A stretch of 64,000 nt of DNA from Aestuariivirga sp. (GTDB taxonomy: Bacteria > Pseudomonadota > Alphaproteobacteria > Rhizobiales > Aestuariivirgaceae): NCBI RefSeq assembly GCF_041738905.1, contig NZ_JBGSOZ010000151.1, positions 5,829-69,828 on the forward strand, in the 5' to 3' direction. Positions 27,508 through 52,061 of this stretch are shown here, piece by piece. The notes below the pieces were generated by a model. The model was not told the DNA's origin, did not search any database, and saw only the letters and a list, made by a program, of their open reading frames with translations. A program made the translations under genes and the position numbers. Numbering within the stretch: position 1 is the first letter of the stretch; every line of letters begins with the position of its first letter.

Positions 27508-27879
27508 ATGAGAACGACCTGGCTACGTTATTGTTGCTGTATTCTTGGCGTTCTTGCCATGCTGGGAAGTGTGTTGTCTGTACCACTCGTCTCAGCCGAT
27601 GCATTTGCGCCGAAGTCAGACATGAGCATGCCGTCCATGACGATGTCAGATGTAGGGGCAGAAGGCTGTCAGAAGCAGGCCGCTGCATGTGCTGACTGCG
27701 GAGATACGAAATGCCCAAATCTGACTAGCTGTCTCATTGTCTTTGTAAACTCGCTGCCGGCCCCTGCAGCCATCGCGTACCGCAGCGTAGTGGGCGCGAC
27801 GGAAAGTTTTGCCTTCTCGTCAGCGACTGCTCCGGCTGGCATGCTCATTCCTCCCTTAATCCGGCCTCCGATCGTCTAA
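27508..27879 (+). CDS. Secreted Cys/Met-rich leader protein (CutF/DUF2946-like)
   Basis: Signal peptide, CADC and CPNLTSC, C-terminal PPLIRPPIV; first gene before the cus operon. Confidence 0.65.
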   Translation: MRTTWLRYCCCILGVLAMLGSVLSVPLVSADAFAPKSDMSMPSMTMSDVGAEGCQKQAAACADCGDTKCPNLTSCLIVFVNSLPAPAAIAYRSVVGATESFAFSSATAPAGMLIPPLIRPPIV

Positions 27880-33447: not shown

Positions 33448-33867
33448 TCAGTGCTCGCCGCCGCAACGCTTGTGGTCGCTGAGCACCTCGATGACTCGGC
33501 AATGGCTCACACGGCCATGGCCGCACTCTTCGACCATGCGTTTCAATTCTTTGCGAAGAGCCTGAAGTTTCTTCAGTCGTAACTCGACTTGTTCGAGATG
33601 CGAACGGGCGATGATGTCGGCGGCGGAGCAACTCGTGTCCGGATTGTCCGACAAATGCAGCAATTCCCGGATTTCTTCAATGCCGAAGCCGAGTTCGCGG
33701 GCGTGACGGATGAACTTGAGGCGACGCGCGTCCTCCGGACCATAGAGCCGGTGGCCACCCTCGGAGCGTGCAAAAGGCCGGATCAGACCGATCTCCTCGT
33801 AATAGCGGATGGTTTGAACCTTTGTGGCCGCGATCACGGCGAGTTTACCGATAGCCATGCCAGCCAT
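33448..33867 (-). CDS. MerR-family metal regulator (ZntR/CadR/PbrR type)
   Basis: TIRYYEEIGL HTH; three spaced Cys (DTSC, EEC, SHC). Confidence 0.9.
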   Translation of the reverse strand: MAGMAIGKLAVIAATKVQTIRYYEEIGLIRPFARSEGGHRLYGPEDARRLKFIRHARELGFGIEEIRELLHLSDNPDTSCSAADIIARSHLEQVELRLKKLQALRKELKRMVEECGHGRVSHCRVIEVLSDHKRCGGEH

Positions 33868-33878
33868 GGAATTTCCTC

Positions 33879-33909
33879 TTGAATCTCCAGTGGCTGGAGA
33901 TTGTATCAA
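33879..33909 (+). promoter_or_regulatory. MerR-type promoter/operator
   Basis: TTGAAT-N19-TATCAA with perfect dyad AATCTCCAG-tgg-CTGGAGATT (33882-33902). Confidence 0.85.
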
Positions 33910-33973
33910 AGAATCAGCGACGCTCAAAGGGCGGCGGCTAGACAACGCCGTCATATGACAGGAACGGAATACC

Positions 33974-39860: not shown

Positions 39861-40016
39861 CCTGCGCCGGTTCGGGCGGTTGGCGTTGTTCAGTAATGGG
39901 CGCTGCCAGGGTCGGCCAACAGCTTCGTAGCCGGGCGCATTGATTCCGCTTGGATTGGAAGGTAGCGGTGGGTGTGCTATCGCTCGGCCGACAGCATGCG
40001 CCGCGATGTAACAGCA

Positions 40017-40751
40017 ATGTCTTTGGATCCAGCCGAACTATTTCAGGCCCGACCGACCATTCTTTTGGTCGATGACGACGTTCAGATTCTGGAACTCGTG
40101 GCCAGATTTCTGCGGTCCAGCGATTTTACCGTCCGCACTGCGCGGGACGGTCGGGAAATGAATGCTTCCCTGGCCGACAGCCCGGTCGATCTGATCGTGC
40201 TCGATCTGATGCTCCCCGGTACCAGTGGATTGGTTCTCTGCCGCGAACTGCGGAAGACGTCGCCTGTCCCGGTGATCATGCTCACCGCCAAGGGGGACGA
40301 CGTTGACCGGATTACCGGCCTCGAGGTTGGCGCCGACGACTATCTCGCCAAGCCTTTCAATCCGCGCGAACTCCTCGCGCGGGTGAAGGCGGTTCTCCGG
40401 CGGACGGCGGCAAGTCTCACCCAATCCCGGACGCGCCACAGGGGCTTCGGCTTCGCCGGGTGGAAGCTCGACTTCCTGAAACGCGAGCTGACCCGGTCGG
40501 ACGGTGTCGTTGTCGATCTGTCGGTGGGAGAGTTCGATCTTCTCGTGACCTTCCTTGATGCGCCCCAGAGGGTGCTCAGCCGCGAATATCTTCTGGACAC
40601 CGCGCGCAACCGGACGCTCGAACCCTTCGACCGGGCAATCGACGTTCAGGTGAGCCGGTTGCGCCGGAAAATCGAAGACGGCGGGGAATTGATCAAGACA
40701 GTGCGGGGTGCCGGCTATATCTTTGCGCCCAATGTCGAGCGGTTCGGCTAG
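40017..40751 (+). CDS. OmpR-family response regulator
   Basis: LVDDD, LDLMLPG, GADDYLAKPF, DRAIDVQVSRLR. Confidence 0.92.
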   Translation: MSLDPAELFQARPTILLVDDDVQILELVARFLRSSDFTVRTARDGREMNASLADSPVDLIVLDLMLPGTSGLVLCRELRKTSPVPVIMLTAKGDDVDRITGLEVGADDYLAKPFNPRELLARVKAVLRRTAASLTQSRTRHRGFGFAGWKLDFLKRELTRSDGVVVDLSVGEFDLLVTFLDAPQRVLSREYLLDTARNRTLEPFDRAIDVQVSRLRRKIEDGGELIKTVRGAGYIFAPNVERFG

Positions 40752-40761
40752 AGGGGTCCAC

Positions 40762-42120
40762 ATGCTGAAACGGGGATTGGACCTGACATTGAACTGGCTG
40801 GACAGTCTGGCCGTTCGGACCATGCTGGTGGTGCTGCTCGGCATCGGGTCCATGCACGTCGCCAGTCTCTGGACCTATCAGCGCGCCCTGATCGCGGAGG
40901 CAGAGTTCGCCAACGAGGCCCGGCTTGCAGACCGGCTGCTTGCCATCAAGCGCTCCGTCCTCCGCGCAGCTCCCGGCGCCCGCGAGGCGGTCGCCCACGA
41001 CATGTCGGGAGGCGCCATCGAGGCGCACTGGAGCAGGGACGCGCTGGCGGTGGAGGGTGGCTCTGGCGCCAGCAGTTGGCAAAGCCTGGGTGAGCAGTTG
41101 CTGGCCCTCGCTCCGGAACTCGGCGAGAACGGGCTGGTGATTGGCGCCAGCGGCCAAGCTGTAAATGATCCGCACCTCGCTGTGATATCGATGCGCCTGC
41201 CGGATCAGACCTGGGTCAACGTGAGTCTCCTGTCTTGGGCGCCGCAACCGTCGAGCGTACATGGAACACTCCTCTCCACCAGTCTCATGGCGGCAGGGGC
41301 ACTGGTGATTGCGCTCTTGCTGGTCAGAGCGCAGACGAGACCGCTCTCGACCTTCGTCAAGGCGGCGGAACGCATTGCCCATGTGCCTGCTGTTGAACCT
41401 GTCTCCGAAACGGGCCCGAGAGAGGTTCGTGCTCTCGCCACGGCCTTCAACGACATGCAGCGGCGCATCAAACGGCTGATTGACGACAGAACGCATGCGC
41501 TTGCGGCAGTTTCGCATGATCTCAAGACCCCGATCACGCGGCTGCGGTTTCGCACCGAGGAAATGGACGACACGGCGCTCCGTGCGGCCGTTGCCGCAGA
41601 TCTCGACGAGATGGAGCGCATGATCGACCAGACGCTTTCATACTTGAGGGAAGAGCGTGGGGAAGAGGAGGTAAAGCCCGTCGACCTGGTTGCGATCCTC
41701 GAGACGGTCACCGACGATGTCGCCGATTCCGGCAGGGAAGCAAGGCTCGAGGGCAGTCCCGCTGCGGTGGTGTGGGGCCGGCGCCTCGCGCTCAAGCGGG
41801 CCTTTGCCAATCTCATCGGCAATGCCGTCAAGTACGGTCTCAGGGCTCAGACCCGGGTGGAAGACGCGGCCGACCATGTGCGAGTCACGATTACGGACGA
41901 GGGTCCGGGGATCGCTACCGAGGACCGGCTACGGGCGCTCCAGCCGTTCGTCCGGCTCGAGCCATCCCGCAACAGCGAAACGGGCGGATTCGGGCTGGGC
42001 CTCACAATCGCAGATTTGGTCATCCGCGGGCACGGCGGCCAGCTTGAACTGACAAACGGCAGCGAAGGAGGTCTGGTCGTGACGGTTCTCCTACCCAAGC
42101 GCCAGCCGGCTGCCGTCTGA
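40762..42120 (+). CDS. Sensor histidine kinase
   Basis: HAMP, VSHDLKTP, NAVKYG, DEGPG, GFGLGL. Confidence 0.92.
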   Translation: MLKRGLDLTLNWLDSLAVRTMLVVLLGIGSMHVASLWTYQRALIAEAEFANEARLADRLLAIKRSVLRAAPGAREAVAHDMSGGAIEAHWSRDALAVEGGSGASSWQSLGEQLLALAPELGENGLVIGASGQAVNDPHLAVISMRLPDQTWVNVSLLSWAPQPSSVHGTLLSTSLMAAGALVIALLLVRAQTRPLSTFVKAAERIAHVPAVEPVSETGPREVRALATAFNDMQRRIKRLIDDRTHALAAVSHDLKTPITRLRFRTEEMDDTALRAAVAADLDEMERMIDQTLSYLREERGEEEVKPVDLVAILETVTDDVADSGREARLEGSPAAVVWGRRLALKRAFANLIGNAVKYGLRAQTRVEDAADHVRVTITDEGPGIATEDRLRALQPFVRLEPSRNSETGGFGLGLTIADLVIRGHGGQLELTNGSEGGLVVTVLLPKRQPAAV

Positions 42121-47035: not shown

Positions 47036-47048
47036 ATTGGAGATCCGC

Positions 47049-47417
47049 ATGAAGAAGATCGTCGCCGTCCTTGGTTTCTGTTTCCTCATGATCATGCCTG
47101 CACTTGCGCATGCGCCCCGGCCTGGCCCCAATGGCGGCCTCATGGTCGATGCCGGGGATTACCATACCGAGCTCTTCGCGGATGGGAGTGAGACCGTGAC
47201 GCTTTTCCTGTTCGACGTGAATGACCAGCCTGTGGAAAGTGCCGGTTTCAAAGCGAACGCCATTCTGATCGTTGGCGGAAAGCCCGCTCGTTTTGCGCTG
47301 GAGCCCGCCGGTGGGCAGAAGATGGTGGGCAAGGCGCCCGGGCTGGTCGAACCCGGCGTCAAGGGAGCGGTGCAGATCACCTTGCCGGACGGCGCCACGA
47401 TACAGGCGAAGTTCTGA
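47049..47417 (+). CDS. Small periplasmic protein of the RND operon
   Basis: Signal peptide, H-x-GPNGG, YHTEL. Confidence 0.7.
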   Translation: MKKIVAVLGFCFLMIMPALAHAPRPGPNGGLMVDAGDYHTELFADGSETVTLFLFDVNDQPVESAGFKANAILIVGGKPARFALEPAGGQKMVGKAPGLVEPGVKGAVQITLPDGATIQAKF

Positions 47418-47544
47418 CGGAGCGCTATTGATCGTGCTGTCCAAAGTACTGGCGGGTTCGGTATTTCACTCGGGTTCCTGGCCGGAGACCGGAGAGGGAT
47501 GAGACGGGCGGGTGCGGCTCGGACTGGCAGCGCAACAATAGGTC

Positions 47545-47568
47545 TTGACCTTCCCAGCGTGGTAAGGT
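47545..47568 (+). promoter_or_regulatory. CueR-type operator/promoter
   Basis: TTGACC overlapping ACCTTCC-N7-GTAAGGT (one mismatch to the CueR consensus). Confidence 0.75.
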
Positions 47569-47631
47569 GCAGAAGCCTTGTCTTGCGGTAGGTCAAAGTT
47601 CCGCCGCACGAAATGCATAAAACTAGGTCCA

Positions 47632-47985
47632 ATGTTCTCCAGGCTCCTCGCCATGCTGCTGCTCGTGCTGCTGGCCGTCCTTCCGGCGGCAGGCCAGGCG
47701 GTCGCTTTTGTAGGTGCTGAGCACTGCGCCCCGGCCTCCCACGCCATGACGATGGAAGCCCATGATGGCGCTGCTGCTGGAGCTGATTGCAACCATGGCG
47801 CCGCCCACCATCAGATGCCCTGCGCCATGATGGGGCTGTGCACCATCACTGGCTGCATGGAATTGACAGGCATCGTGACCCCTGAGGCTGTAGCCTTGGG
47901 GCAGCGCATGAGCTTCCGCGCTCCAGAGGCCCTGCAGGTCGATGGTCTGGCGCTTGCGCCGCCATTTGAGCCTCCGCGCGCCTGA
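47632..47985 (+). CDS. CutF/DUF2946-like leader protein
   Basis: Signal peptide, His/Met/Cys-rich middle, C-terminal APPFEPPRA; directly upstream of the multicopper oxidase. Confidence 0.7.
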   Translation: MFSRLLAMLLLVLLAVLPAAGQAVAFVGAEHCAPASHAMTMEAHDGAAAGADCNHGAAHHQMPCAMMGLCTITGCMELTGIVTPEAVALGQRMSFRAPEALQVDGLALAPPFEPPRA

Positions 47986-48064
47986 CGCAGTCCTAACTCT
48001 CTCCTTCATCCTTGATCTGATCAGTCGTGCGCCTCTTGCAGCGCGCCCAATGAAAGCATTCGAC

Positions 48065-49522
48065 ATGAACCGTAGAACCCTTCTATCCGGCACCGCATGC
48101 GCCGTCGCGCTTGGCCTTGCCGGCCGTCCGCTCTCGTCCGCCCGCGCTGCAGCGCCGCGCATCCTGACGGTCGACAGCCGTACTATCGAGGTGAACGGCC
48201 GCGCCGCCAAGGTCTTCAGCCTCACAGGTCCCGATGGCAAGCCCGGCCTCACCTTCAACGCCGGCGAGAATTTCGACGTCACTCTCAATAACCGGCTTGC
48301 CGAGCAAACGATGATCCACTGGCATGGGCTCACGCCGCCTAACCAGTTCGACGGCGTGCCGGACATGCCGATGCCGCTTCTCAAAGCGGGCGAACAGCGA
48401 ACCTACAGCTTCCCCGTAGGCTCCGGCGGTACCCACTGGATGCATGCCCATACGCTGCAGGAACAGGCACTCCTGGCCGCGCCGCTGATCGTGCGCAGGC
48501 CCGAAGACCTGTTGGCCGACGAGCAGGAAGTAGTGGTACTGCTGCATGACTTCTCCTTCACGCCCGCGGCGGAACTACTTGCGAAGCTCAAGAGCGGAAG
48601 CGGCGGGCACGGGGAGATGATGCAAGGCATGGATCACGGCGCCATGATGCAGGGAAGCGGCGGCATGAAGGGCATGATGATGTCCGGCGGCAACATGGGC
48701 AGCATGACGATGCAGGGCGGCATGGACCTGAATGACATTGCTTATGACGCCTTTCTCGCCAATGACCGGACGCTGGACGACCCGGAGATCGTGCCGGTCG
48801 CAGCAGGCGGGCGCGTCCGTCTCCGCATCATCAACGGGGCGACGTCCACGGGCTTCACGGTCGACCTTGGAAACCTCTCGGGCGACCTTGTGGCCGTGGA
48901 CGGACAACCCGTCGTGCCGATGTCCGGACGCCGGTTCCCGCTCAGCATGGGCCAGCGTGCCGACATCCGCGTGTCCGTGCCGAAAGAGGGAGGCGCATTT
49001 CCGGTGCTGGCATTGCGCGAAGGAGCGCCAGAACGCACGGGCCTCGTTCTCGCCACGCCGGGTGCCACGGTTGCCAAGATCGTGACGGCCGGTGACGGCG
49101 CGGGGCCGGTCCTGAGCCTTGACCTTGAAGCCCGAATGCTGGCGGCGGAACCGCTTGTCTCACGAACCCCGGACAGGACATTCATGGCGCATCTCTTCGG
49201 CAACATGGCTGATTACAGCTGGGGCATTGCCGGAGAGCCGATCAGGGTACGCAAGGGCGAGCGCATCGAAGTCGAGATGATGAACATGTCGATGATGGCT
49301 CATCCCATGCATCTTCACGGGCACCACTTCCAGGTGACTGGGATCAACGGCACGCCATTCAATGGCGCCATGCGCGATACGGTTCTCGTGCCGCCCATGC
49401 AGTCCGTGCGCTTTGCGGTCGATGCAAATAATCCAGCGAACTCATGGGCATTTCACTGTCATCACCTCTACCACATGGCGAGTGGCATGATGTCGTCGTT
49501 TGCCTATGAGGATGCGACCTGA
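48065..49522 (+). CDS. Tat-exported multicopper oxidase (CutO/CueO-like)
   Basis: MNRRTLL; HWHG, WMHAH, HPMHLHGH, HCHHLYHM; Met-rich insert. Confidence 0.93.
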   Translation: MNRRTLLSGTACAVALGLAGRPLSSARAAAPRILTVDSRTIEVNGRAAKVFSLTGPDGKPGLTFNAGENFDVTLNNRLAEQTMIHWHGLTPPNQFDGVPDMPMPLLKAGEQRTYSFPVGSGGTHWMHAHTLQEQALLAAPLIVRRPEDLLADEQEVVVLLHDFSFTPAAELLAKLKSGSGGHGEMMQGMDHGAMMQGSGGMKGMMMSGGNMGSMTMQGGMDLNDIAYDAFLANDRTLDDPEIVPVAAGGRVRLRIINGATSTGFTVDLGNLSGDLVAVDGQPVVPMSGRRFPLSMGQRADIRVSVPKEGGAFPVLALREGAPERTGLVLATPGATVAKIVTAGDGAGPVLSLDLEARMLAAEPLVSRTPDRTFMAHLFGNMADYSWGIAGEPIRVRKGERIEVEMMNMSMMAHPMHLHGHHFQVTGINGTPFNGAMRDTVLVPPMQSVRFAVDANNPANSWAFHCHHLYHMASGMMSSFAYEDAT

Positions 49523-49530
49523 CGCAAGAA

Positions 49531-49557
49531 CGGCGCGGGCGGCGAACGCCCGCGCCG
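49531..49557. terminator. GC-rich hairpin between convergent genes
   Basis: CGGCGCGGGCG-gcgaa-CGCCCGCGCCG, 11-bp perfect stem. Confidence 0.7.
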
Positions 49558-49599
49558 ACTGGCCTTTTCCTTCAGACAGCTATTGGTTCTGGAACATCA

Positions 49600-51972
49600 T
49601 CAAAGTGCGACCCGCCGCAGCCGCAGCGCGTTGGTGATGACCGAGACGGAGGAAAGGCTCATCGCCGCTGCCGCGATCATCGGTGACAAAAGAAGTCCAG
49701 TGACAGGATATAGCAGCCCCGCCGCAATCGGCACGCCTAATGTGTTGTAGGCGAAGGCGAAGAACAGGTTCTGCTTGATGTTGCGCAGCGTGGCACGCGC
49801 CAGCTTTCGCGCCCGCACGATCCCCATCAGATCACCGCCGAGCCGGGTGATGCCGGCGCTCTCCATCGCCACGTCCGCCCCGGTGCCCATAGCGATGCCG
49901 ACATCGGCGGCGGCTAGCGCGGGCGCGTCGTTCACCCCGTCGCCGGCCATGGCGATCTTGTGACCATCCTTGCGCAACTGGTCGATCAGATCCTTCTTGG
50001 CCTCGGGCAGAACGCCCGCGCGCACTTCGTCGATGCCAAGTCTTCCAGCCACCGCCTGTGCCGTGCGCTCGTTGTCGCCGGTCGCCATGATGACGCGCAG
50101 ACCTTGGGCATGCAGTTCACGGATTGCCTGCGCCGTGCTGTCCTTGATCGGGTCGGACACCGCCACGATTCCCGCCAGTGCGCCGTCTACCGCAATGAAC
50201 ATTGCTGTTTTGCCTTCAGCGCGTAGAGTATCGGCCTTTGCCTCAGCCTGTGCCGTATCCAGTCCCATCTCTCGCATCATCGACGCATTACCGAGTGCGA
50301 CGGCCCGGCCGCCGATCTTGCCACGCACGCCTTTTCCGGTGATAGCCTCGAATTCCGTCGCCTCCTGACGTGCAGCGCCCTGTGCCTCGGCCCCCTCGAC
50401 GATCGCCTCAGCCAGCGGATGTTCTGAGCCGCGCTCGAGTGCTGCGGCTAGCGATAACAGGCCAGTCGCCTCGATATCACCCAGCACCACAGTATCGGTT
50501 AGCTTCGGCTTTCCCATCGTCAGGGTGCCGGTCTTGTCGACGATCAGCGTATCGACGCCCGCCATCCGCTCCAGCGCCTCGGCATCCTTGATCAGCACCC
50601 CCGCCTGCGCGCCTCGCCCTGCTGCCGTGGTGATGGAAATTGGCGTCGCCAATCCAAGTGCGCAGGGGCAGGCGATAATCAGCACTGACACAGCGGAGGC
50701 GATTGCGAAGACCAGAGCGGGTTCCGGCCCGAAGATGAGCCAAGCGACGAACGCGAAAATGGCGATAGCCACAACCGTCGGCACGAACACCGCCGACACC
50801 CGGTCAGCCAATCCCTGGATAGGCGCACGCGAACGGCGCGCGTTCGATACCATCGCCACGATCTGCGCCAACACCGTATCGGAACCGACCTTTCCCGCCT
50901 CGATCACCAGAGAGCCATTCTTGTTGATTGTGGCCCCGGTCACCGCATCGCCCGAGGCCTTTTCAACCGGCATGGACTCGCCGGTCAGCATGCTTTCATC
51001 CACACTGGATCGACCCTCGATAACGACGCCATCCACCGGCACGGCATCACCGGGGCGCACACGCAGCCGGTTGCCCGCCATGATGTTTTCCAGCGGCGCG
51101 TCATATTCTGTGCCATCAGGCAGGATCCGCCTTGCGGTCTTGGGAGCGAGATCAAGCAGTGCCCGGATCGCGTCGCCTGTGCGTTCCCGCGCCCGCAGTT
51201 CCAGGACCTGACCCACGAAGACCAGTGCCACAATCACCACCGCCGCCTCGTAGTAAGTGCCAACGCCGTGGCCCATCCGGTAGGCATCCGGAAAGACGCC
51301 CGGCATAAAGGTCGCGACCAGGGAATAAAGATAAGCCGCCGCCACGCCGAGGCTGATCAGCGTCCACATGTTGGGTGAGCGGTTTACAACCGAGTCCCAG
51401 CCGCGCTTGAAGAACGGCAAGGCAACCCAGAGGATGACCGGTGTCGCCAGCACGAACTCCAGGTAGCTGGCTACCTGATGCCCGATCCAGTCGCGGACCG
51501 GCAGGGAGACCAGTTCGCCCATTGTCAGAACAACGAGGGGGACCGCTGCCGCGGCCGAAACCCACATCCGTCGTGTGAAGTCGGTCAACTCCTCGCTGGG
51601 CTCGCCGGAGGGCAGCATCGGCTCCAGCGCCATGCCGCAGATCGGGCAGGCACCAGGCGCGTCGCGGACGATCTCGGGGTGCATCGGGCAGGTATACTGG
51701 ACATTGGTGGGGACGGACTTCTTGCGCCCGGCAGCCCGGCCGGAGGCATAAAACCAAGGGTCTGCCTGGAACTTCGTCTGGCACTTGCCCGAGCAGAAGT
51801 GGAAGGACTTGCCGTCGAACGTCTCGGAGCGCGTCTCGGGCTTCAGGGTCACGGTCATGCCGCAGACCGGGTCGACGGCCGTCGGCCCGGCGCTGAGTCT
51901 AGGCCCCGTGTTGCCCTGGTCCATTTCGGGGTTCGAATGACTGTAGCCTGCGTGCGGATCGACGGTGGACAA
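49600..51972 (-). CDS. copA: P1B-1 Cu(I) ATPase with YHS and metal-binding domains (TTG start inferred)
   Basis: DPVCGM, YTCPMHP, CPC, DKTGT, YN, MSLSS; SD aggag before the TTG. Confidence 0.92.
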
Positions 51973-52030
51973 GGCGTTCTCCTTTCGCGGTCTGCGCCGC
52001 GTGAAGGCCGATGCACAGGCCTTCACGTTC

Positions 52031-52061
52031 GAATTGCTCCTTCCCAACGCTGGAAGGTCAA
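52031..52061 (-). promoter_or_regulatory. CueR-type operator/promoter for copA
   Basis: Minus strand TTGACC overlapping ACCTTCC-N7-GGAAGGA. Confidence 0.8.

Follow-up and report, generated by a model that had tools for sequence, protein, structure and literature searches.

A CueR-type operator and a putative CutF-like leader ahead of a multicopper oxidase gene in an Aestuariivirga metal-resistance island

A 64,000-nucleotide stretch of Aestuariivirga sp. contig NZ_JBGSOZ010000151.1 (the window) contains a leader-oxidase operon, in which a short exported open reading frame (ORF) rich in Cys, His and Met precedes a multicopper oxidase gene, and this operon is probably controlled by copper at two levels, a reading we hold with moderate confidence. 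Operator, leader, spacer and oxidase are conserved together, with the right geometry, in ~11 diverged lineages; the copper dependence of either layer and the step that couples them we infer from sequence and by analogy with known systems. The two genes, leader and then oxidase, would be transcribed from a MerR-family CueR-type promoter that fires once a Cu(I) sensor in the cytoplasm untwists the spacer, which at 19 bp is over-long. The leader would act as a CutF-like nascent-chain sensor, with a Cys cluster ~45 residues ahead of a diprolyl tail ending three codons short of the stop. Copper on the emerging chain may change the dwell of the ribosome on the last codons, by analogy with CutF and CruR, and the dwell time would set expression of the oxidase gene 79 nt downstream, in cis. 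Two forms of coupling are weighted about equally: a paused ribosome could cover a C-rich, G-poor tract at the stop and block Rho, as in CruR and TnaC, or it could remodel the spacer RNA around a GC hairpin and thereby bring the oxidase gene's weak ribosome site into use, as in CutF.

Nascent-chain sensing of the CutF type, described only recently, informs the translation or transcription machinery of copper in the periplasm. A clade in which such a leader is tied to a Cu(I)-sensor promoter would lend itself to asking whether cytoplasmic and periplasmic signals are integrated on a single mRNA, and whether different CutF-like leaders act by unmasking the ribosome site or through Rho. In practice the gain is modest: better annotation of a small-gene family missed by Pfam, a corrected oxidase start and a defined 26-nt RNA or DNA element.

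Conserved operator, leader and oxidase

The CueR-type operator, reported in an earlier note made from the sequence alone, lies at 47545-47567 and is kept in every relative found. A -35 hexamer TTGACC (47545-47550) overlaps the core CCTTCC-CAGCGTG-GTAAGG (47549-47567), and a weak -10 hexamer CAGAAG (47570-47575) follows 2 bp after the box, which gives a spacer of 19 bp. The published CueR core is CCTTCC-N7-GGAAGG, and Escherichia coli PcopA likewise has a 19-bp spacer and 2 bp between box and -10 (PMC8169799); the window operator has one mismatch to that core and the same geometry as PcopA. Among relatives (loci numbered with the prefix L), the core is matched without mismatch in L010, and the left half-site differs in others (CCCTCC, CCTTGC). 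With up to three mismatches allowed, a CueR-box search of the window returned two sites, each on both strands (four matches versus 0.16 expected; 0 of 100 shuffles reached four), the second site standing before a copper ATPase gene (Table 1). No ordinary sigma-70 promoter with a 16-18-bp spacer was detected in 47380-49650.

A CueR-type box precedes the leader gene in every relative locus, with diverging flanks, and the operator is retained in 11/11 lineages despite near-saturated synonymous sites. Boxes of this type are also found in relatives before P1B ATPase genes (L001, L004 and L012) and a DUF4396 gene (L017 and L023). The box therefore behaves as a regulon motif, recurring before leader, P1B ATPase and DUF4396 genes. 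In L017 (5933-5955) and L023 (11985-12007), the further box sits directly past the oxidase gene and ahead of the DUF4396 gene, which suggests that DUF4396 is a member of the same copper regulon in these two loci.

The leader had been described beforehand as a 117-amino-acid (aa) exported His/Met/Cys ORF ending APPFEPPRA, and it is present as such at 47632-47985. It encodes five Cys and many His and Met residues, carries the motifs HC.PA and DCNHG..HHQ.PCAMMGLC.MTGC, and terminates in LAPPFEPPRA-stop, with P114 and P115 at 47971-47976 and the stop codon at 47983-85. Inspection of the sequence assigned a Sec-type signal peptide (MFSR-LLAMLLLVLLAVLP-AAGQA) with n, h and c regions, conserved in all homologues. 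A search of 5.8 billion proteins yielded 23 homologues at 56-92% identity, none with a Pfam domain, and pairwise dN/dS is 0.2-0.4 at dS 0.8-1.4 between distinct lineages; the leader ORF is therefore a real gene. A profile search of 1.84 billion representatives added ~18 further small proteins of 110-136 aa with the same layout.

Conservation across the leader alignment is concentrated in the signal peptide, HC.PA, DC.HG..H...PCAMMGLC.MTGCM and LAPP[LF]EPPRA. From the Cys cluster (C64, C70 and C75, in the pattern PC-x5-C-x4-C) to the C-terminus the alignment contains no indels, and C70 is 45 residues from P115; a Cys-to-proline-tail distance of ~45 residues is considered critical by the CutF authors. 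EPPR is near-invariant in the 24 aligned leader sequences and recurs in distant relatives, and the tails of close and distant homologues alike read (P)P.EPPR plus 0-3 residues. The oxidase gene begins 74-79 nt past the leader stop in every close-subfamily locus long enough to show the next gene, and the genes upstream of the leader differ between loci.

CutF-like proteins have been defined by Ozturk et al. 2023 as shorter than 150 aa, with PP in the last 15 residues, a signal peptide and a same-strand neighbour within less than 1000 nt. All four properties are found here (117 aa; P109-P110 and P114-P115; the signal peptide; the oxidase gene at 79 nt), so the label CutF-like given in the earlier note stands and, as judged from sequence, the leader is an unrecognised CutF-like subfamily missed by Pfam. 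In the AlphaFold model of the leader (pLDDT 51), the signal helix alone is confident; the mature part is modelled with low confidence and predicted to be unstructured. Only two species-representative genomes carry the close leader subfamily, both metagenome-assembled (one Bradyrhizobiaceae and one Hyphomicrobiales), and the sequencing runs that contain the window sequence are hot-spring metagenomes. Metatranscriptome contigs of relatives run from the end of the leader across the spacer into the start of the oxidase gene; these contigs are short, carry neither 5'-end nor attenuation information and count as weak evidence.

We note that the window encodes a second CutF-like leader of another subfamily (27508-27879, plus strand; tail ...IPPLIRPPIV-stop), which precedes a YtkA-like gene and cusBA. 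The sequence upstream of this second leader yielded no CueR-type box, and the two leaders therefore appear to be under different promoters within one island.

The oxidase placed downstream of the leader in the earlier note is a three-domain cupredoxin protein, but its start is at 48065 and not at 48050: ATG 48050 is replaced by ACG, AAG or CGA in relatives and ATG 48065 is conserved. The protein has a twin-arginine (Tat) motif, MNRRTLL, and, as read from the sequence, a Met-rich insert at about residues 183-232. Its TIGR01480 score of 243 bits is below the cut-off of 479, so the oxidase is not an equivalog of plasmid CopA. Its relatives in the PDB are laccases and multicopper oxidases, and megablast against plasmids gave only a 72% oxidase match, from Methylobacterium nodulans.

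Between promoter and leader ORF lies a 26-nt element of the 5' untranslated region (5'UTR) in which 25/26 positions are invariant across all lineages, next to synonymous sites near saturation. The predicted fold is a hairpin with a 6-bp stem plus a GG/CC pair and an 8-nt loop (UCAAAGUU), and because the sequence is invariant no covariation support for this fold is possible. The element stands 12-14 nt past the box and is therefore at or near the transcript 5' end. Its distance to the leader ATG varies among loci (22-24 nt), so it is non-coding; an N-terminally extended leader (from TTG 47578) or a mini-ORF across the element was considered and is excluded by the same variation. Rfam gave no relevant match in 47400-48200, the element included. 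A metagenome-wide scan placed the pattern in this operon family only, with one true match and four chance ones in unrelated coding sequence. Candidate roles are those of a stabilising hairpin at the 5' end, a binding site for a protein or small RNA, and a further operator in the DNA. A different, perfect 9-bp hairpin (GTGAAGGCC-N7-GGCCTTCAC) occurs in the copper ATPase 5'UTR (52000-52024, minus strand), right after the second CueR-type box, and is also kept in L004.

Table 1 Features of the leader-oxidase operon and the adjacent copper ATPase gene in the window.
Feature	Position	Strand	Basis or context
MerR/CueR-type promoter	47545..47575	+	Consensus core and geometry; conservation in relatives
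5'UTR element TTGCGGYARGTCAARGTTCCGCCGCA	47583..47608	+	Near-invariance in relatives; between promoter and leader ORF
CutF-like leader ORF, 117 aa	47632..47985	+	Homologues, dN/dS, motifs
C-rich, G-poor (rut-like) tract	47986..48026	+	C/G ratio, skew peak; contains TTCAT 48005-48009
GC hairpin GUGCGC / loop CUCUUGCA / GCGCGC	48027..48046	+	Same position in 12/12 loci
Weak Shine-Dalgarno-like GAAAG (48052-56), 8 nt, ATG 48065; conserved block CAAYGARAGYATYCGAYATG	48052..48067	+	Conservation
Three-domain multicopper oxidase gene, CopA/PcoA/CutO type	48065..49522	+	Pfam Cu-oxidase_3, Cu-oxidase, Cu-oxidase_2
YHS/HMBD P1B copper ATPase gene	49600 to ~51974	-	Behind second CueR-type box
Second CueR-type box TTGACCTTCCAGCGTTGGGAAGG	52039..52061	-	Before YHS/HMBD P1B copper ATPase gene

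Leader-oxidase spacer and coupling

The pyrimidine-rich gap pointed out earlier corresponds to the 79-nt spacer at 47986-48064. Pairing of TTCAT (48005-48009) with ATGAA (48065-48069), also proposed in the earlier note, does occur in the minimum-energy fold of the window spacer, but only the window and its closest relative share it, most relatives lacking it; the fold itself is no better than those of shuffled sequences (z = +0.46). The GC hairpin begins 41 nt past the leader stop and varies in sequence and length among lineages, with one compensatory change (L010 versus L011). It ends ~19-20 nt before the oxidase start and 5 nt before the Shine-Dalgarno-like GAAAG, which leaves the ribosome site outside the hairpin. 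The layout of Shine-Dalgarno-like site and ATG is the same in the distant locus L024. The consensus spacer fold contains only five invariant pairs, between CGCGC in the last leader codons and GCGCG in the hairpin's 3' arm, with no covariation. This 5-bp pairing is missing in L024 and was set aside as a by-product of the GC-rich Pro-Arg-Ala codons. When the stretch under a paused ribosome was masked in silico, the folds showed no systematic opening of the ribosome site.

The base composition of the spacer bears on Rho. Attenuation of the CruR/TnaC type, in place of ribosome-site unmasking, is a sub-case of two-level control that we put forward tentatively: a ribosome held on the last leader codons would cover the rut-like tract, and the polymerase would continue into the oxidase gene. 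The ratio of C to G is 1.9-5.2 over the 40 nt past the stop in 10 loci, despite sequence divergence, and the C-minus-G peak falls exactly at the leader stop in 8 lineages; moreover, no intrinsic terminator was detected in 47380-49650, and shielding of the ribosome site is not conserved. The tract is short (~40 nt), however, the C>G skew extends into the signal-peptide-coding part of the oxidase gene, and richness in pyrimidines is equally compatible with an anti-Shine-Dalgarno decoy or with plain unstructured spacer.

The closest precedent for this coupling is CruR of Bordetella pertussis, a DUF2946 upstream ORF of the same superfamily that is described as Rho-dependent and associated with a C>G bubble (PMC9426467). 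CruR shares with the leader studied here an exported-type sequence with a Cys motif, a proline arrest motif at the C-terminus (putative here), a C>G tract at or after the leader end and control in cis, which is proposed here, and the poor predicted structure of the leader is in line with the CruR report. CruR differs in its CXXC and RAPP motifs (the tail here being EPPRA), in an intergenic region of 162 nt, in the gene that follows, which serves TonB-dependent uptake, in a dispensable signal peptide and in its polarity, copper turning the CruR operon off. Arrest-peptide control over Rho in TnaC works like that in CruR. A C>G tract stands beside an arrest-peptide-type stop here as in CruR and TnaC, and Rho masking is therefore rated about equal to ribosome-site remodelling.

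Known systems and alternative explanations

The system most similar to the leader-oxidase operon is cutFOG of Rhodobacter capsulatus, where CutF is a nascent-chain copper sensor that controls CutO (PMC8456105, PMC9973294, bioRxiv 10.1101/2025.02.05.636593); the cutO ribosome site is sequestered in a stem-loop until a stalled ribosome melts this structure. Both operons have a small Sec-exported Cys-rich ORF (117 aa here versus 118 aa) directly upstream of a Tat-exported Met-rich oxidase, tails of the form PPR-x-stop (PPR-A-stop here, GPPPRL-stop in CutF), a spacing of ~45 residues between a Cys motif (C-x5-C-x4-C here, CxxxC in CutF) and the proline tail, and a short intergenic region with a stem-loop. 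Unlike the R. capsulatus promoter, which is reportedly copper-unresponsive, the present one has a conserved CueR-type operator; the CutF stem-loop hides the ribosome site, whereas the hairpin here lies upstream of the site; and the present operon lacks a downstream cutG and has the extra invariant 5'UTR element. CutF-like genes upstream of multicopper oxidases are already known, with 317 in the authors' first list (Ozturk et al. 2023).

Several observations weigh against two-level control. At the promoter, the -10 hexamer is poor. In the leader, the Cys motif C-x5-C-x4-C is unlike the CxxxC of CutF or the CxxC motif, and the proline run consists of two PP pairs (PP..PP) and not the PPP that is essential in CutF. 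The leader also misses the threshold of Pfam DUF2946 (PF11162; E = 3.3, 8.9 bits versus a cut-off of 23.7), and only 3/24 aligned leader sequences reach E <= 0.1 (best 5e-4). In the spacer, the GAAAG/GAGAG site and AUG are predicted to be mostly unpaired in 8/10 relatives, and no conserved stem-loop covering the oxidase ribosome site was found across the relatives' spacer folds. With neither a conserved pairing nor a stem-loop over this site, the R. capsulatus mechanism cannot simply carry over. If a paused ribosome reaches ~13-15 nt, the hairpin, at 41 nt past the stop, lies too far off to be unwound from a pause on P114/P115. To these points are added the purifying selection on the leader and the regulator evidence, which are taken up with the alternatives they favour.

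Purifying selection spans the whole mature leader, which fits a working periplasmic protein too. Transcription might thus be the only regulated step, the leader being a periplasmic copper-binding accessory (a chaperone or maturation factor) whose proline tail has no arrest role. We consider this unlikely, although the dN/dS of 0.2-0.4 holds over the full leader length, including the middle block FR.P..L.VDGLAL, the mature leader is rich in Cys, His and Met, the predicted folds of relatives leave the oxidase ribosome site open, and CutF itself was viewed as a maturation factor in 2021. An accessory role does not readily account for a near-invariant tail at a fixed distance from the stop, Cys-to-tail spacing without indels, a spacer fixed at 74-79 nt or the lack of a confident fold for the leader. 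CutF, moreover, is described as acting only in cis and as undetectable in cells.

As to the regulator, tblastn with an E. coli CueR sequence and a relative's MerR protein as queries found no cueR gene in the window. The sole MerR-family gene detected is at 33448-33867 on the minus strand. Its ZntR score is slightly above its CueR score, all scores being below the cut-offs, and the operator beside it (TCTCCAG-N3-CTGGAGA) differs from the CueR-type boxes. Where CueR has Ser77, this gene encodes Cys, and its product is ZntR/CadR-like. By these sequence features it is a Zn/Cd-type gene and not the regulator of the CueR-type boxes. With the only MerR gene of the window ZntR-like and equipped with its own operator, any cognate CueR would have to be encoded outside the window. 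The operator of this gene is of the 19-bp-spacer type (33875-33910, TTGAATCTCCAGTGGCTGGAGATTGTATCAA), and the gene heads a dsbA-ldt-P1B ATPase cluster.

Indirect support for CueR comes from L024, a distant locus in which a cueR gene does stand next to such an operon, followed directly by a cutF-like gene and the gene of a homologous oxidase; the cueR product has Ser at the S77 position, a C-x7-C loop and the signatures RASADV and CHGDDRPDC. The three genes (cueR, cutF-like gene, oxidase) lie in this order on one strand at L024:176-1403. One protein call from this locus (P0155) looks chimeric, with the CueR N-terminus fused to the leader, and an imperfect dyad (CTTCACCCC-ATCA-GGGGAAG) is present upstream of the L024 cueR.

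The missing cueR gene leaves some room for an operator served by a MerR regulator that is not specific to Cu(I), such as an Ag/Au or broader-metal one, or for an operon fed mainly by read-through from cusBA. No terminator-like site separates the end of the preceding 124-aa ORF (47417) from the box, and cusBA upstream is two-component-controlled, with a CusRS-like pair at 39972-42120. Yet the box matches the CueR core and not the Zn/Cd-type dyad of the same window, it also precedes copper ATPase genes, and it is retained in relatives with unrelated or divergent upstream genes. Both variants are accordingly judged improbable, more so than an accessory role for the leader.

The operator follows that of the E. 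coli CueR regulon (PcopA and PcueO; PMC8169799), with the core inside a 19-bp spacer at 2 bp from the -10 element and a copper ATPase paired with a periplasmic multicopper oxidase. An oxidase under CueR is already known in E. coli; its cueO gene, however, has no leader ORF, whereas the oxidase here is the second cistron behind a CutF-like gene. In Xanthomonas, copL-copAB also has a CutF-like leader upstream of a copper oxidase that acts only in cis, and is described as regulated at transcriptional and translational levels. It belongs to another sequence cluster and to the Gammaproteobacteria, and the accounts consulted describe no CueR-type operator for it. Likewise, no CueR box on a cutF-like operon appears in the available portions of the CutF/CruR literature that names both DUF2946 and CueR. 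What sets this operon apart from the known scheme is its conserved CueR operator, a leader subfamily not recognised before, the lack of a stem-loop that shields the ribosome site and the additional element in the 5'UTR.

The AND gate of cytoplasmic Cu(I) and periplasmic Cu put forward in the earlier note may operate here, and further inputs might come from cusBA read-through and from the invariant element in the 5'UTR. An extended form of two-level control, in which three inputs act on one transcript (Cu(I) through the CueR-type promoter, periplasmic Cu through the leader and a factor on the 5'UTR hairpin), possibly coupled by a copper-ON, Rho-dependent version of the CruR mechanism, is more doubtful than Rho-dependent attenuation as such. 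We know of no description of a copper-ON, Rho-dependent version of that mechanism.

Neighbouring genes in the island

The operon is embedded in a metal-resistance island, with the CusRS-like pair, cusB and cusA upstream. Past cusA, the 124-aa ORF (47043-47417, plus strand) encodes an exported protein with no Pfam or NCBIfam match; the position of this gene is conserved in relatives, with products of 122-126 aa in L001, L004 and L005. Downstream, on the opposite strand, are the YHS/HMBD P1B ATPase gene, a DUF302 gene and a gene for a Met-rich EF-hand protein. The long ORF call for the ATPase starts with TTG at 52047 and runs over part of the promoter; the true start therefore lies at ~51974 or further in.

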